DNA of 11,884 nucleotides from a virus. Taxonomy: Duplodnaviria > Heunggongvirae > Uroviricota > Caudoviricetes. Below the pieces are notes generated by a model. That model made no database searches. It was given only the letters and a program-made list of their open reading frames with translations, and was not told the origin of the DNA. The stretch covers positions 1-11,884 of IMG/VR virus record IMGVR_UViG_2703719368_000012. One strand, 5' to 3'. Position numbers and translations under genes: made by a program. Positions 1 to 9,005 of the stretch are shown one piece after another; position 1 is the first letter of the stretch; every line of letters starts with the position of its first letter.

Positions 1-2343
1 GCATCGTGCAGGGCGTTATGGCGTTCACCTTCGAATGGAATAGTCGTTCTTGCGTCGAAATCCATCACCAGTCCCAGAGCAACCATCGTTCTTACATCGC
101 GATCATTGGTGTAACGCCACGGGCAGGGGATCCCCTGCCGTTCATATGAACGGCGTAAAATCACGTTGTCGAAAGTTGCACCGTTACCCCAGACCTGAAC
201 AAAAAATTCACCGGAGTTTTCGTCGATAAATTCCCGGAATTGCAGCAGTGCATCATCCAACGTGATTTCATCGGTCAGAATGGAGGATTGTGCTTCGCGT
301 GACTGTTTCAGCCACCACTTAATGGTGTCCCGATCGATGACCCCACCTGCGGTTTCCAGATCGATAGTTTTGCTGAATTCTGGCCCCATCTCTCCGGTTG
401 CCGGATCAAAAAACTTACCGGCTATAGAGTTTATTGGCGCATCAGGATTTTTTCCCATTGTTTCAAGGTCAATCATCAGATGGTGCCACAACCTGCTGGT
501 GGATGAGATTTCATGATGACCGTTCACTTTAATTAAGGGATTTGCTGTTTCGCCAGTTTTATTATCGCTGGCGTGATACTGATCGCTGCCAGTGTTCTCC
601 TTGTGCAGATGTTCAGTGCCTTCCATTTCCTCCGGATCATTTTTCTGAGCTTCAGCCTGATTCTCTTCATCGAATGTTTCCAGGTAGGTTGCGTTCCCCA
701 TCACCGCACCACAGTCAGGACAGTTGCCGCCACCGGTCTGACCGCATGCGGTGCAAACTTTTTCCAGTTCCTGTTGCACTGCTGGTTCTGGTTGTTGTTC
801 TTCTGGCCCGTTTTGTTGCGTATCCGGGCTGTTTTGTTCCGCTTCTGGCTCATTTTGTTTCACGTTGGGCTGATTCTGGTCCTCAGCGTCGCGACTCTGG
901 ATCCCTTTCACCCATTTCGGATCATTCGGGTCGCTAATCCCTTCAACAAATTCACCACGTGATGCAGCAAGCAATTTATCGGCGTCAGGCTGGCTGATAT
1001 TGGCTGCCTGCATAATTTTGTTTACTTCGTCAGCGGTAACTTTTACCGGCTCTGATTGTTCGGAATCTTCAGCGGTATCCACATTTTGCGGTAAGCCCGT
1101 GTATGTGCCATTTTTTCGGGCAAAATATTCTTCTTTTGAGATTTCGGTACCGCCGGCAGCCAGCGCCTTGTCCAGACCAGAAAGTTTGTTTGCCCTGCCG
1201 TATTTTTCCCCGCCCTTATCGGTAAAGACGAAATAAAATGGTCCTTCACGCTCTACAGATGGTTCAGCTTCCACCAGGATTTCATTTTTTTGAGTATCGG
1301 ATTCTGCCGTCTCCACTGGAGCAGTTTGTGCTGCTGACGGCTGGAGAGCATCAGTAGAGCTCTGGTCTGTTTCTTCATGTTCAAACACGCCCTTTGTCGT
1401 CAGGTATTCACTGATATATTTGTTCAGTGCAACGGGATCTTTGTGAATATCGATCGGACGTTCGCGAACAAGGCCAAAAATAGTCTGACGGTCATAGCCA
1501 AGTGCTTCGGGCTGTTTGCGCATTGATGCTGAGATACGCTTCCAGTCTTCGCGATCCTTGTCGATAACCTCATTTGTCGCCCAGCGATGGATGGTACCGT
1601 CAATGTTTCCTGCATCCACATCACCGGGCCAGAGGGCGCAGGCCAGTTCATTGTCGAGTGTTTTCCATGTCTGTTTGTATTCGCGGCGAATGGCAAAAGA
1701 GATCAACAACAGACGTGTATTTTCCGGTTTCCTTGCGTTCACCTTCGCGACGTTTTTTCCAGATGCGCATCTCTGCCTGAATTTCAGGCCATTTAGCGCC
1801 AGGCTCACATTTATGCTTAACCCACCCGATGGCATGCAGTTTAAGTTCAGGATACATGGCGTTAACTTCTGGCATTTTCATCAACGCTTCAACGATATGT
1901 CCGCCGAATGTTGCCATGTCTTCCTGTAGTAATTCCTGTGCGCTAATCACCATATCAACGGTGATGTTTTCGCATGTGTCGAATTTAACCAGGACTGCGT
2001 TCTGTACTTCAGGGGACAGCTTGTCAAAATTGACGTTCATCGGATCGGATTCTGGTTCGACCGGTACAAAGGAAGCTGACTCCTCATCCCAGCGGTTTTC
2101 CTGCATATATTCGGTATCCCAGGAATCGAGGGCAGGGCGGGGTATGCCGGGTTTATCCTCGCAGACAATAAATTTATAAGCGCAGTCCTGAGCTGCCGGG
2201 AATTGCTCCAGAAATTGCCAGTGAAATTTTGCGCGTGCGCGACGCTCATCACCGGCTTCAATGGCAGTGGCCACCGCAACAGCGCTATCTTCTTTTATGG
2301 CCTGTTCGTCAGGAATAGCAGCGCAAATAAAGATTTTACTCAT
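1..2343 (-). CDS. Phage exonuclease (exodeoxyribonuclease VIII-like annotation class) with C-terminal DEDDh 3'-5' exonuclease domain; reading frame broken near 1695-1698; 3' end beyond window edge
   Basis: Minus-strand ATG at 2343 with GAGG about 10 nt upstream opens a 231-codon ORF (MSKIFICAAIPDEQ...) that stops at 1648. A second minus-strand frame, open from about 1740 to position 1 with no stop, continues plausibly (FAIRREYKQTWKTLDNELACALWPGDVDAGN...). It contains a Cys4 motif (CTACGQTGGGNCPDCGAV) and, near coordinates 1-500, DEDDh-like exonuclease motifs (MIDLETMG, WGNGATFD, HNALHDA). The two frames overlap around an A4/T4 run at 1695-1698. Confidence 0.8.
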
Positions 2344-5228: not shown

Positions 5229-5630
5229 TCACGCCCGGCGGCTTTTTTGTGCCGCCAGCCACCTAGCAATGGTTTCTTCCATTGATTTTTTCTTGTCTTT
5301 GATTTCTTGAAGCATTTTTTCTTGGTCTTCCTCAGGAAACGCACTAAAAGCTTGGAGCAGTTCGCGTTGGCGAGGACCAATTTTCATCGTGTCAGGGGTG
5401 AAAATTTGCTCACACTCTTCAGGAGGCAATAAAAACCAATGCAATGGATGCCCTGAAACCTCAACCAGTTTATCCAAACTTGAGGCTTTAGGTGTAGCCT
5501 TACCGCTGACCCATTGTTGAACAGTTTGTTGTGTCACACCAATTCTACGGGCAAGCTCAGCCTGGCTCCATCCAGTTTCCTGAAGAAGCTTGCTGATTCT
5601 GTACATAGATACTTCTAGGGCGCTCATCAT
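5229..5630 (-). CDS. Prophage repressor-like HTH (XRE/Cro-CI family) DNA-binding protein, about 133 aa, no peptidase domain
   Basis: HTH signature SQAELARRIGVTQQTVQQWVSGKATPK; transcribed divergently from the cro-like gene across the operator region at 5631-5738. ATG at 5630 has no Shine-Dalgarno (possibly leaderless); an alternative ATG at 5606 gives 125 aa. Confidence 0.7.
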   Translation of the reverse strand: MMSALEVSMYRISKLLQETGWSQAELARRIGVTQQTVQQWVSGKATPKASSLDKLVEVSGHPLHWFLLPPEECEQIFTPDTMKIGPRQRELLQAFSAFPEEDQEKMLQEIKDKKKSMEETIARWLAAQKSRRA

Positions 5631-6011: not shown

Positions 6012-6420
6012 ACACATCCGCATGGCGATGAATGCCTGGGCGCATCCGGACGGCGAAAAAGTACCGGCTGCGAAAATTACCAAAGCGTATTTCGAGCTGG
6101 GAATGACGTTCCCGGAACTGTATGACGACAGCCATCCGGAAGCCATGGCTCGCAATACTCAGAAAATTTTCCGCTGGGTGGAGAAAGACACTCCTGATGC
6201 GGTTAAAAAAATTCAGGCGTTGTTACCAGCGATCGAAAAAGCGATGCCGCCTCCGCTGGTGGCCCGAATGCGCAGCCACAGTTCCGCTTATTTTCGGGAG
6301 TTGGTAGAGACGAAGGAACGGCTGGTGAAAGATATTGATGATTTCGTTGCATCAGCGATCGTTCTGTTCGATCAGATGAATCGTGGTGGCCCGGCAGGAA
6401 ACACTCTGGCTGTGCATTAA
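5995..6420 (+). CDS. ydaT: YdaT-like protein (141 aa), toxic-when-derepressed family in Rac
   Basis: Product begins MKIKHEHI, as I recall for Rac YdaT; start overlaps the end of the ydaS-like gene by 17 nt; GGAG about 8 nt upstream. Confidence 0.7.
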   Translation: MKIKHEHIRMAMNAWAHPDGEKVPAAKITKAYFELGMTFPELYDDSHPEAMARNTQKIFRWVEKDTPDAVKKIQALLPAIEKAMPPPLVARMRSHSSAYFRELVETKERLVKDIDDFVASAIVLFDQMNRGGPAGNTLAVH

Positions 6421-6433
6421 TTGGGTAATAAAT

Positions 6434-6943
6434 ATGAGTAATGACAAAAAATTGACACTGAGCGTTTACGAAAACAGTCCGCACATCTGGCGTGGCGGTT
6501 TATCTGATGTGGAGCTGGCAGAGTGGTTGATACATAAAGCTAATGCGCTGCTCTGGCGTTTGTCAGCCAGAGAACAGCGCAAGGAAACCAGAATAAAGCT
6601 GGCTGATGCAGAAGCGTGTGCCGGGCTTATTGAGGATTATACAAATCTTGGTATTTCTTCAGCAGAGAGTGATCCCATTCAGCCTCTGAGCAGGGAGTCA
6701 ATCCAGCACGCTGGTTGTATGGCACATCTTGTAACTGCTCGTCAACATGAGGTGGGTATTGGATCACTTCCGGCGGGATATTCGCTGATTCCAGAGCTGG
6801 TTGAAGCAAGAAAATCAGTTCAGAAAAAGAGAGATGACGCACTTCAATTATTGAGAGAGCACTATGGCGCGATACCAGAATGCGAACAGCGTCGATACCC
6901 TGAAGGTTATGAATGGATGCAGTCTCTTTTTGAAGTTCGCTAA
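6434..6943 (+). CDS. Hypothetical early-right protein (169 aa)
   Basis: ATG at 6434 (MSNDKKLTLSVYENSPHIWRGGLSDVELAEWL...); ordinary codon usage; the RBS is weak, and an alternative GTG at 6383 would overlap the ydaT-like gene. Confidence 0.55.
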   Translation: MSNDKKLTLSVYENSPHIWRGGLSDVELAEWLIHKANALLWRLSAREQRKETRIKLADAEACAGLIEDYTNLGISSAESDPIQPLSRESIQHAGCMAHLVTARQHEVGIGSLPAGYSLIPELVEARKSVQKKRDDALQLLREHYGAIPECEQRRYPEGYEWMQSLFEVR

Positions 6944-7160
6944 TCAATATGTCGAGACGAAGGTATGTTTCGGCGCGCAGCCAGGCTCTGTAATCCGGGA
7001 GCATTTCGGGGCTGTTACACCAGCGGTTTGTTGCTGCAACATTTAATACATGAGCCTGATAAAGGCTTTTCAAAAAATACATGTCGAACCTCCTCTGGTT
7101 CTGTCGATTGGGAACCACAGATTATATCCGGAGGAAGGTTCGGCACCAGATGAGGTAGCC

Positions 7161-8252
7161 ATGCGTGATTACGCAAAAGTTTCTCCGCGATTCTGGCTGG
7201 GAGAAACGGGGAGAGAACTTAGAAAGGCGGGTGCAGAAGCGCAAGTTGTTGCTTTTTACCTGATGACATCCCCTCACGCAAATATGCTGGGTTTGTATTA
7301 CCTGCCAGTTTTATACCTTGCTCATGAAACCGGGCTTGGTCTGGAAGGGGCTTCAAAGGGGCTTAAAAGGGCTGTTGAAGCTGGTTTTTGTAGCTATGAC
7401 CATGATGCAGAGATGGTCTGGGTCCATGAAATGGCAGCCTGGCAGGTTGGGGAAACGTTGAAGCCTGGCGATAACCGTTGTGCAGGTGTCAGGAATGAGT
7501 ATGCATCATTACCTGAAAACGCTTTTCTGTCAGTGTTTTACGACAGATATAAAACGGATTTCCATCTGGATGTGAGGCGGAATAATAGCCGAAATTCGGT
7601 AAGGGGCTTCGAAGGGGCTTTTAAGGGGCTTCGAAGCCAAGAACAGGAACAGGAGCAGGAGAAAGAACAGGAACAGGACAAAAACACTATGGTTCATGGC
7701 AAAAAAAACACCACGAACCAGGCAGGGGATGTTCAGACCGTCAATCCTGGTCAGCCAGCAGGCACGACACCGGAAGCCGATTCGGGCGCTGTGCAGCAGG
7801 TGATGACCGCAGGGTCGGAGCAATCACACCAACTGCAGCAGCCTGAAGCCGATTCCGCCATTCAGCGGGAAGCCGATCGGGTAGTCCCGGAAAGCACCGG
7901 GCAGTCTGTGGGACGAGTGGATTATCCGGATGTGTTCGAACAGGTCTGGCGGGAATACCCGTTGCGTGCTGGGGCAAACCCGAAGAAATCCGCTTTCAGT
8001 GCCTGGAAGGCCAGATTGCGCGAGGGGGTGCCACCAGAGACCATGCTGGATGGTGTGAGGCGTTACGCGAGATACCTGGCGGCGACCGGGAAAGCGGGAA
8101 CGGAATTTGTTCAGCGAGCGACGACGTTTTTTGGGCCGGACCGGAATTTTGAAAACCCCTGGTTGCTCCCGGTAAGCGGCACGAACAACCAGCGTTGTGT
8201 GAATCATATTTCTGAACCGGATACCGAAATTCCGCCGGGATTCAGGGGGTGA
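7161..8252 (+). CDS. ydaU: YdaU-like (DUF1376) putative replication initiation or replisome-organizer protein with an EQ-rich linker (363 aa from this start)
   Basis: ATG at 7161 with GAGGT 4 nt upstream. N-terminal region (FWLGETGRELRKAGAEAQVVAFYLMTSPHANMLGLYYLPVLYLAHETG...EMVWVHEMAAWQVGE) matches my recollection of Rac YdaU; it directly precedes the DnaC-like gene, as lambda O precedes P. The track ORF begins at ATG 7050 but has no RBS there. Confidence 0.75.
   Translation: MRDYAKVSPRFWLGETGRELRKAGAEAQVVAFYLMTSPHANMLGLYYLPVLYLAHETGLGLEGASKGLKRAVEAGFCSYDHDAEMVWVHEMAAWQVGETLKPGDNRCAGVRNEYASLPENAFLSVFYDRYKTDFHLDVRRNNSRNSVRGFEGAFKGLRSQEQEQEQEKEQEQDKNTMVHGKKNTTNQAGDVQTVNPGQPAGTTPEADSGAVQQVMTAGSEQSHQLQQPEADSAIQREADRVVPESTGQSVGRVDYPDVFEQVWREYPLRAGANPKKSAFSAWKARLREGVPPETMLDGVRRYARYLAATGKAGTEFVQRATTFFGPDRNFENPWLLPVSGTNNQRCVNHISEPDTEIPPGFRG
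7345..7375 (+). repeat. Iteron-like direct repeats, cluster 1 (AAGGGGCTT at 11-bp spacing)
   Basis: AAGGGGCTT at 7345-7353 and 7356-7364, with a degenerate third copy (AAAAGGGCT) at about 7367; exactly 11-bp periodicity. Confidence 0.45.
7601..7682 (+). repeat. Iteron-like direct repeats, cluster 2 (3 x AAGGGGCTT at 11-bp spacing) followed by a tandem hexanucleotide (GAACAG-like) array and an A-rich tract; candidate origin within the initiator gene
   Basis: AAGGGGCTT at 7601-7609, 7612-7620 and 7623-7631; then GAACAG GAACAG GAGCAG GAGAAA GAACAG GAACAG GACAAA (7641-7682), encoding the QEQEQEQEKEQEQDK linker; then A-rich sequence including an A8 run. Confidence 0.5.
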
Positions 8253-8258
8253 TGTGGC

Positions 8259-9005
8259 ATGAAAAACATTGCGGCAGCCGGGGTTCTTGAACGTATTCGC
8301 AGACTTGCACCACAGGCGTCGGTTCCACCGTACCGGACGGTGGAGGAGTGGCGGGAATGGCAACTTGCTGAAGGACGAAAACGCAGCGAGGAGATTAACC
8401 GCCAGAATCACCAGTTGCGGGTGGAAAAAATCCTGAATCGTTCGGGCATCCAGCCTCTGCACAGCAAATGCTCGTTTGCGAATTATCAGGTGCAGAACGA
8501 CGGGCAAAAATACGCGCTGAGCCAGGCCAAATCCATAGCTGACGAACTGATGACCGGGTGCACGAATTTTGTGTTCAGCGGTAAAACCGGCACCGGGAAA
8601 AATCACCTTGCAGCGGCGATGGGTAACCGGCTGATGGCGAAGGGGCGCAGCGTGATTATCGTCACCGTGTCTGATGTCATGAGCGTGTTGCATGACAGCT
8701 ACGACAACGGCAAATCCGGGGAAAAATTTTTACAGGAGCTTTGCAGTGTTGATTTGCTGGTCCTGGATGAAATAGGCGTTCAGCGGGAGACGAAAAACGA
8801 GCAGGTGGTATTACACCAGATAATTGATCGCCGGACAGCATCACTGTGCAGTGTCGGGATGTTAACAAACCTGAATCATGCCGCAATGAGTACACTTCTT
8901 GGTGAGAGGATTATGGACCGCATGACCATGAACGGTGGTCGATGGGTGACGTTTAACTGGGATAGCTGGCGTCCAAATGTCAGCAATATGAGGGTTGTGA
9001 AGTAA
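8259..9005 (+). CDS. ydaV: DnaC-like AAA+ helicase loader (YdaV-like replication protein, 248 aa)
   Basis: Walker A GKTGTGKNHLAAA and Walker B LLVLDEIG; N-terminus MKNIAAAGVLERIRRLAP as I recall for Rac YdaV; ATG 6 nt after the upstream stop, AGGGGG RBS. Confidence 0.9.
   Translation: MKNIAAAGVLERIRRLAPQASVPPYRTVEEWREWQLAEGRKRSEEINRQNHQLRVEKILNRSGIQPLHSKCSFANYQVQNDGQKYALSQAKSIADELMTGCTNFVFSGKTGTGKNHLAAAMGNRLMAKGRSVIIVTVSDVMSVLHDSYDNGKSGEKFLQELCSVDLLVLDEIGVQRETKNEQVVLHQIIDRRTASLCSVGMLTNLNHAAMSTLLGERIMDRMTMNGGRWVTFNWDSWRPNVSNMRVVK

Follow-up and report, generated by a model that had tools for sequence, protein, structure and literature searches.

Phased 9-bp repeats inside the initiator gene of prophage Sp4 as the probable core of a replication origin

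Origins of replication that lie inside initiator genes are a known kind. In phage lambda the origin (ori) is located inside gene O, with its iterons at or near the interdomain linker; the N-terminal domain of the O protein is the specificity module, and the C-terminal module is exchangeable and fits the helicase loader that the following gene encodes. In SPP1, gp38 binds the direct repeats of oriL within gene 38, the repeats are followed by an unwinding element, and the genes for loader and helicase lie downstream (PMC6316719). SPP1 was the sole precedent found in the literature on replisome organisers, iterons and replication modules. The locus considered here belongs to prophage Sp4 of Escherichia coli O157:H7. 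The DNA analysed, called the window, is the full stretch of 11,884 nucleotides (nt), and coordinates are window positions unless stated otherwise; it is 100% identical to many O157 chromosomes and lies inside the feature annotated 'prophage Sp4' in strain Sakai. Its gene ECs_1073, annotated 'phage replication protein' in Sakai, encodes a protein of 363 amino acids (aa) and carries two clusters of the 9-base-pair (bp) word AAGGGGCTT. These words are very likely binding sites for a protein, acting at the level of the DNA. The two clusters are probably double-stranded sites, or iterons, for the winged-helix N-terminal domain (N-domain) of the protein encoded by the very gene that contains them, and as such the core of the prophage replication origin.

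Exact copies of AAGGGGCTT begin at 7345, 7356, 7601, 7612 and 7623, all on the + strand and with none elsewhere in the 11.9-kb window; the expected count is 0.09, and none of 200 dinucleotide shuffles gave five. They fall into two clusters about 250 bp apart, within each of which the spacing is exactly 11 bp, and Tandem Repeats Finder (TRF) reports a period of 11 at 7345-7371 and 7601-7636. The original prediction for this stretch, made by reading the letters alone, had described three copies at 11-bp spacing (7601-7631) with a second cluster upstream (7345-7375). Both clusters were found again, the third copy of cluster 1, AAGGGCTGT at 7367-7375, being phased and degenerate (6/9). Beside its three exact copies, cluster 2 has a phased half-site, AAGCCAAGA, at 7634-7642. 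Directly 3' of it stands the GAACAG-type tandem hexamer array that had also been pointed out (TRF period 6, 6.3 copies, consensus GAACAG), and the repeated peptide reported with the 9-mers is equally real, reading LEGASKGLKR at aa 61-70 and FEGAFKGLRS at aa 150-159. Owing to the 11-bp spacing, each of the three sites of cluster 2 falls in a frame of its own, giving RGF, EGA and KGL.

Homologues were drawn from 79 loci on contigs chosen as one genome per species, and from 80 viral contigs and 10 annotated phages; codon, spacing and frame statistics refer to 63 homologues below 90% nt identity, with a gene GC content of 0.39-0.68. Of the 79 diverse loci, about 65 have the word, allowing at most one mismatch, at gene nt 185 and 196, followed by two or three copies at about nt 430-463, and site numbers range from 2+2 to 3+3 in nearly all of the 63. 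The codons of cluster 1 are close to invariant: E62 is GAA in 100%, G63 GGG in 95%, A64 GCT in 90%, K66 AAG in 100%, G67 GGG in 90% and L68 CTT in 92%. The spacer codon, S65, is free, with five codons in use and TCG the commonest at 58%, and at other conserved Gly, Ala and Leu columns the top codon reaches merely 0.35-0.55. At cluster 2 the two codons that come after the last site, CGA and AGC, are the same in 100%. The 13 motif columns have a normalised codon entropy of 0.161, versus 0.836 for 82 other conserved columns (Mann-Whitney p=5e-9), and the 12 lowest-entropy columns of the 95 conserved ones all lie inside the 9-mers. The 2-nt spacers vary freely in sequence; the distance is exactly 11 bp in 133 of 150 adjacent site pairs, and sites occur in all three reading frames (128, 114 and 32 of them).

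The word also occurs in both orientations. In 40 lineages cluster 2 reads as the exact reverse complement, AAGCCCCTT, encodes EAPSKPL or QAPSKPL and keeps the 11-bp spacing; it is AAGGGGCTT (EGASKGL) in 7 lineages, the window among them, and mixed in 12. A tree from which the motif region was left out has the inverted state as the ancestral one and shows at least four independent switches of orientation. At cluster 2 the peptide follows the DNA. Palindromic junctions between the sites, CTTCGAAG, would offer a simple route for flipping the whole cluster. Selection on the words is strong and acts on the DNA, whatever the reading frame or orientation. It had been noted at the outset that homologues keeping the peptide and losing the 9-mers or their spacing would speak against an iteron-like DNA element; the homologues do the opposite, retaining word and 11-bp spacing even where the peptide changes, and such an element is strongly supported.

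In B1251, a complete 45-kb Acinetobacter phage genome, exact copies are present only inside the initiator gene and 38 bp upstream of it, the upstream sites being at 5611 and 5622 of that locus (L173). Other Acinetobacter members (L024, L037, L039 and L040) also have an extra pair or triplet of 9-mers just upstream of the initiator start codon, at -37 to -15, where the window has none; these extra sites may serve as an operator for autoregulation or form a third cluster of the origin. A metagenome-assembled genome (MAG) of the Burkholderiales (L067, positions 1-330) carries the gene twice, the second copy lying 1.5 kb upstream. Cluster 1 of this second copy has five exact AAGGGGCTT at 11 bp and a degenerate phased sixth, and its (GAACAR)n array is very long; at another locus (L078) cluster 2 has 8 copies. 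These expanded clusters indicate that the copy number of the sites is plastic.

The sequence of the word co-varies with the type of N-domain rather than with the host. In homologues of about 30% identity, which come from a Bacillota MAG, Janthinobacterium, Paraburkholderia and Kaistia, another phased word occupies both places: cluster 1 has AAAGGGTTT and cluster 2 has AAACCCTTT or GAACCCTT, again with CGAAACCAG and a hexamer array after it. Both iteron types exist inside Janthinobacterium and inside Burkholderiaceae, each paired with its own N-domain type; it is thus the N-domain that the word follows, and not the host. Cluster 2, in the linker, goes in turn with cluster 1, in the helix. In the Escherichia phage Tritos (L172), an unrelated N-domain is joined to a window-type C-domain, and the gene has its own 11-bp phased word, (T)GTCACG, in two clusters. 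This N-domain, annotated as of Phage_rep_org_N type, shows no homology to that of the window (hhalign probability 0.1%). After the second cluster of Tritos comes a short-period array, (GATAAAGATACA)n, and then the junction AAAACACTATGGTYCATGGC, as at window 7681. The layout in Tritos therefore indicates that the architecture is general for this initiator class.

An AlphaFold2 model of the initiator, built on an alignment of 40 sequences, has a predicted local distance difference test score (pLDDT) of about 90 for aa 10-142, whereas residues 143-175 score below 50 and are modelled as disordered. The modelled N-domain has helices (H) and strands (E) in the order H25-36, E45-47, H49-57, H60-73, E77-80, E85-88, which is the H1-S1-H2-H3-S2-wing-S3 topology of a winged helix. 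Its best named neighbours in BFVD are a 'replisome organizer' and a 'replicon initiation protein' (best named match E 1.8e-4). In this model cluster 1 (aa 62-68) falls within helix 3, by winged-helix topology the presumed recognition helix, and cluster 2 and the QE-encoding array within the predicted disordered linker between the domains. For cluster 2 and the array, this placement agrees with that of the lambda origin in the interdomain linker of O, which had been cited as a parallel.

An origin inside the initiator gene is favoured, among other support, because the gene sits in a replication module beside a DnaC-type loader, because the winged-helix fold has replisome-organiser structural neighbours, and because SPP1 gp38 and oriL provide a precedent (PMC6316719). 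The N-domain as the binder, the complex as the origin, the place of melting and the loading of the helicase are inferred. Initiation might proceed as follows. Early rightward transcription would lead to synthesis of the initiator, and N-domain monomers would then occupy the 9-bp sites, one per helical turn, so that within a cluster all of them would sit on the same side of the helix. Bridging across the roughly 250 bp between the clusters may produce a looped or wrapped higher-order complex, whereupon a less stable neighbour would open, the best candidate being the hexamer array together with its A-rich flank (7641-7720). Finally, the C-terminal module with its PPGFRG tail would recruit host DnaB via the adjacent DnaC-type loader.

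Several findings weigh against an origin at this place. A strong AT-rich unwinding element, as expected of origins of the lambda and SPP1 type, was not found in the AT profiles of the window or the family, and there are no DnaA boxes near the initiator gene. The A-rich tract of the original prediction does exist, but it is modest as an AT-rich element: 7660-7719 is 60-62% AT, and its duplex stability lies less than one standard deviation from the window mean (free energy -50 to -51 kcal/mol per 40 bp, versus -53.7 +/- 4.5). Family-wide, the AT excess is only +8% over the array, and it is +13% about 100 bp upstream of cluster 2. Foldseek against PDB gave weak, generic winged-helix matches, all at E >0.1, though they agree with the modelled fold. 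A tblastn search of 72,556 plasmids for a natural minimal replicon returned six records of 32 kb to 4.1 Mb, none of them small, and the literature searched contained no experiment on binding or origin firing for any member of the family. Lastly, the amplification of Sp4 in Sakai was reported to be passive only, driven by the regional replication of its neighbour Sp5 (PMC2669165). The Sp4 repressor is devoid of the peptidase domain needed for SOS induction (PMC2669165), so that the prophage's own replication module may simply not have been induced in Sakai.

The weak AT-rich flank, and the report that Sp4 did not replicate autonomously in Sakai (PMC2669165), would also fit sites that the initiator binds mainly for autoregulation, as a transcription roadblock or for handcuffing, with the origin proper elsewhere. 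The extra pair of sites in the Acinetobacter relatives, 27-38 bp upstream of the start codon, is where an operator would sit. Such a role is nevertheless unlikely to be the main one, as there is no other repeat cluster or iteron copy in the window or the 45-kb Acinetobacter phage genome, and operators within coding sequence, in two clusters 250 bp apart, would be unusual. In lambda O the equivalent layout is an origin. The same holds for SPP1 gp38 (PMC6316719).

It is quite improbable that the sites are read by a host factor or another phage protein, or that they are kept as recombination linkers for module exchange. The coincidence of the module breakpoints with the end of the hexamer array would suit linkers, and binding by the N-domain is itself inferred. 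However, the word follows the type of N-domain and not the host genus, and it stays unchanged while the partner protein varies between a DnaC-type loader and, in Fraca and CharmingMan, a primase-helicase. It is also constant from Acinetobacter to Burkholderiales and beyond, a range over which no single host factor would be expected. Nor would a role as recombination linkers hold every synonymous site and the 11-bp phasing constant.

The chance is very small that the words serve a structure in RNA or single strands, cluster 1 pairing with an inverted cluster 2 (AAGGGGCUU with AAGCCCCUU) in mRNA or unwound DNA. The clusters are indeed inverted repeats in the majority, ancestral state, and the window segment folds better than its shuffles (z = -3.3). 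Yet the window and six other lineages have like-oriented clusters, in which the pairing is lost and the 9-mers are still exact; moreover, the predicted fold of the window uses local palindromes only, and no Rfam family matches. Long-range pairing of the clusters was rejected for the window, where both have the same orientation, and since the orientation of cluster 2 is changeable, conserved RNA or hairpin pairing is ruled out. Hardly credible at all is the idea that the protein simply needs a repeated peptide, EGAxKGL, and that duplication and selection on the protein made the nucleotides alike as a side effect. EGASKGL is indeed strongly conserved at aa 62-68 and, in the window, returns at aa 151-157. 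But synonymous positions are fixed across GC contents of 39-68%, with the rare codons GGG, CTT and GCT; each of the three sites of cluster 2 has its own frame; and the inversion of the DNA word makes the peptide of cluster 2 EAPSKPL in most lineages. Codon fixation, use of three frames and orientation flips together rule out a purely peptide-level explanation.

The hexamer array is present after cluster 2 in nearly all homologues. Among identical N-domains its length varies, examples from the viral contigs (L091-L170) being QEQEQEQEKEQEQD (14 loci), QEQEQEKEQEQD (9) and a form of 20 residues (1). Other lineages keep the 6-bp period and encode KE, TE/AE, VS, SE, TV/TI or PE, and two have CAGGAR hexamers read in another frame. 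No DNA-level constraint was detected on the QE array, the synonymous sites of which are as variable as background in the 63 homologues. In the simplest reading the array would be a slippage-prone flexible linker, microsatellite-like, that also marks the module junction; it may have a DNA-level role as part of the unwinding region. Just 3' of the array, at 7690-7720, is an imperfect inverted repeat, TGGTTCATGGC-A8-C-ACCACGAACCA, which a scan calls a terminator-like hairpin on the minus strand; phage Tritos has a similar one. The lambda ori has an inverted repeat beyond its AT-rich region.

Two linked readings go further, and their joint truth is possible, if doubtful: that the gene holds a self-referential dual code, and that the array with its 6-bp period is a DNA-level element, either an unwinding or a loader-assembly track. 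The binding sites would then be written in the codons of the initiator's recognition helix (E-G-A-S-K-G-L = G-AAGGGGCTT-cN-AAGGGGCTT). With such a code, a change in a site would simultaneously alter the reading head and cluster 2 would have to follow, so that the evolution of specificity and that of the origin would be physically coupled. This could explain the joint rise of new specificities, for example AAGGGGCTT/EGASKGL versus AAAGGGTTT/ERVEKGF. As a DNA element, the array would have a logic comparable to that of the DnaA-trio beside DnaA boxes.

The initiator belongs to a large and poorly named family. RefSeq calls the protein (WP_001205823.1) a 'hypothetical protein'. PHROG 1701, 'DnaD-like helicase loader', matches residues 1-363 over profile positions 1-323 (E 8.9e-149), the name being annotation only; the N-terminal half matches phrog_25210 (unknown function) and the C-terminal half phrog_3729, 'replication initiation protein' (E 1e-125). 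No Pfam family matches the 363-aa protein at E<=0.01. This includes Phage_rep_O, the lambda O family; the N-domain has no Pfam match of Phage_rep_org_N type (SPP1 gp38-like) either, the resemblance being at the level of the fold only, and DnaB_2 was not found in the window protein, though it is found in a distant homologue (L085). At E<=1e-3 the family comprises 4086 clusters at 50% identity, with members in prophages of E. coli O157, Shigella phages encoding Shiga toxin (Stx), Klebsiella, Acinetobacter, Burkholderiales and beyond. The gene is composed of two modules: nt 1-520 are common to the Shigella and E. coli Stx phages 75/02 and POCJ13 and to phages of Klebsiella, Acinetobacter and Ralstonia, while nt 521-1090 have 92% nt identity with phages that carry an unrelated N-domain, such as Tritos. 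The homology breakpoints are at about gene nt 512-521. The positions of all these parts are collected in Table 1.

The gene order matches that of the Rac prophage, with ydaS-like and ydaT-like genes upstream, then the initiator and a DnaC-type loader, and a DUF1627 gene downstream. The loader, ECs_1074, has Pfam matches to IstB_IS21 and Bac_DnaA and an NCBIfam match to PRK12377 (E 2e-153), and is 80% identical to Rac YdaV; it has been classed among the DnaC-type loaders (PMC2669165). In Fraca and CharmingMan a primase-helicase takes the place of this partner. The initiator had been called 'YdaU-like', a name that fits the gene order and not the protein. Homology to YdaU was rejected: DUF1376 (PF07120) matches K-12 YdaU (E 3e-26) and not the window protein, the stretch common to both in BLASTP is the last 19 aa only (...PD..IPPGFRG), and the hhalign probability is 0.4%. 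The likeness is one of position only. The C-terminal tail, ...VN.IS.PD..IPPGFRG (aa 345-363), is common to the window protein, Rac YdaU and, weakly, host DnaT, the remainder of these proteins being unrelated. Since it accompanies a YdaV/DnaC-type loader, the PPGFRG tail is probably a docking peptide for the loader or the helicase.

Just upstream of the initiator gene, two open reading frames (ORFs) overlap on opposite strands, each with a family match. The + strand ORF, 6383-6943, matches phrog_8304 (E 6e-120); the one on the - strand, 6627-7118, matches the NCBIfam 'ECs1072 family' (E 3e-30) and is the one that RefSeq annotates. At most one of the two is likely to be real, and one of the families may therefore rest on mis-called ORFs.

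Table 1. Positions of the initiator gene, its repeats and modules, and the loader gene
Feature	Position	Strand	Evidence
Initiator / replisome-organiser gene, 363 aa (ECs_1073)	7161-8252	+	ORF; GAGG Shine-Dalgarno at 7152-7155; RefSeq coding sequence at the same place
Codons of N-terminal winged-helix domain, aa 1-142, presumed iteron-binding domain	7161-7586	+	
Iteron cluster 1, in helix 3 codons (aa 60-73)	7345-7375	+	Exact copies; TRF; fixed synonymous sites
Iteron cluster 2, in disordered linker	7601-7642	+	Exact copies; TRF; reverse-complement form in most homologues
(GAACAG)n array encoding QEQEQE linker; junction between exchangeable N and C modules	7641-7678	+	TRF
Mildly A-rich stretch with inverted repeat around A8 run; weak candidate for an easily melted flank	7679-7720	.	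AT and free energy; hairpin scan; seen with this C-module
Codons of C-terminal module, presumed adaptor to helicase loader	7681-8252	+	phrog_3729; terminal motif ...PDTEIPPGFRG at 8193-8249
DnaC-type helicase-loader gene (ECs_1074), partner of the initiator	8259-9005	+	Pfam; NCBIfam; identity to YdaV
Phased clusters of Tritos (positions in L172)	1655-1700 and 1910-1965		5 copies in the second cluster

The literature searched held no description of an origin for this family and no paper with these 9-mers in a phage context, and a paper on the Eru/Stx replication region treats neither this module nor its origin. The clusters offer a precise, testable origin for a very large family of initiators that lacks a Pfam model and is often labelled 'hypothetical'; if the proposal is correct, the origin of every member can be predicted from a single 9-bp word phased at one turn. 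The locus is also a clean natural case of overlapping codes, in which a protein-binding word present in three frames and both orientations dictates the peptide, and methods meant to tell constraint on DNA from constraint on protein could usefully be benchmarked on it. Tools based on replication incompatibility or origin titration, directed at temperate phages of the Stx type and of Acinetobacter, would find natural targets in the sites, and the N-domain with its iterons marks a unit that is exchanged between phages.

Compared with the known systems, the arrangement is close in plan to that of lambda, in which, too, the origin (here a candidate) is embedded in the coding sequence of the initiator and transcription reads through it. 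In both, the iterons are at or beside the interdomain linker, the N-domain travels with its iterons, and the exchangeable C-module matches the loader of the next gene. Unlike lambda, the window protein has no sequence relation to O (no Pfam match), and its loader is DnaC-type whereas that of lambda is P-type. The iterons of the window are 9 bp long at one-turn (11-bp) spacing, in contrast to the lambda units of about 19 bp with internal symmetry; their two clusters are about 250 bp apart, and one of these lies where the DNA-binding domain is encoded; the AT-rich flank is weak. With SPP1 gp38 the likeness lies in direct repeats within the initiator gene, with a loader gene downstream, and in structure, the closest named neighbours of the N-domain in BFVD being 'replisome organizer' proteins. 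No sequence homology to proteins of Phage_rep_org_N type is detectable, however, and the repeats have another word and another spacing. In SPP1 there is also a distant second origin, oriR; both clusters of the window are in the gene.

Rac YdaU/YdaV resembles the window in gene order, in the loader (80% identical to YdaV) and in the 19-aa C-terminal tail ending in IPPGFRG. The N-domains are unrelated, and the internal repeat of YdaU is a different one, AGATGTTCAAACA. In Rac ydaU of E. coli K-12 (NC_000913.3; L171, 4472-4578), copies of AGATGTTCAAACA type lie 33 bp apart and are accompanied by an inverted copy, TGTTTGAACAT; these repeats are perhaps the counterpart in the Rac-type module, its origin (the old 'oriJ'). 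Iteron plasmids, with their winged-helix Rep proteins (RepA, pi, pTZ2162/pSK41), typically have iterons of 17-22 bp, about two turns apart, in non-coding DNA beside rep, unlike the 9-bp sites of the window, which are one turn apart and inside coding sequence; a protein of the window type is used by no plasmid replicon among 72,556 plasmids. What is unusual in the initiator gene of Sp4 and its relatives is thus not an origin within a gene as such, but 9-bp sites spaced by one turn, two clusters of them, one lying in the codons of the presumed recognition helix, and repeated flips that rewrite the peptide.

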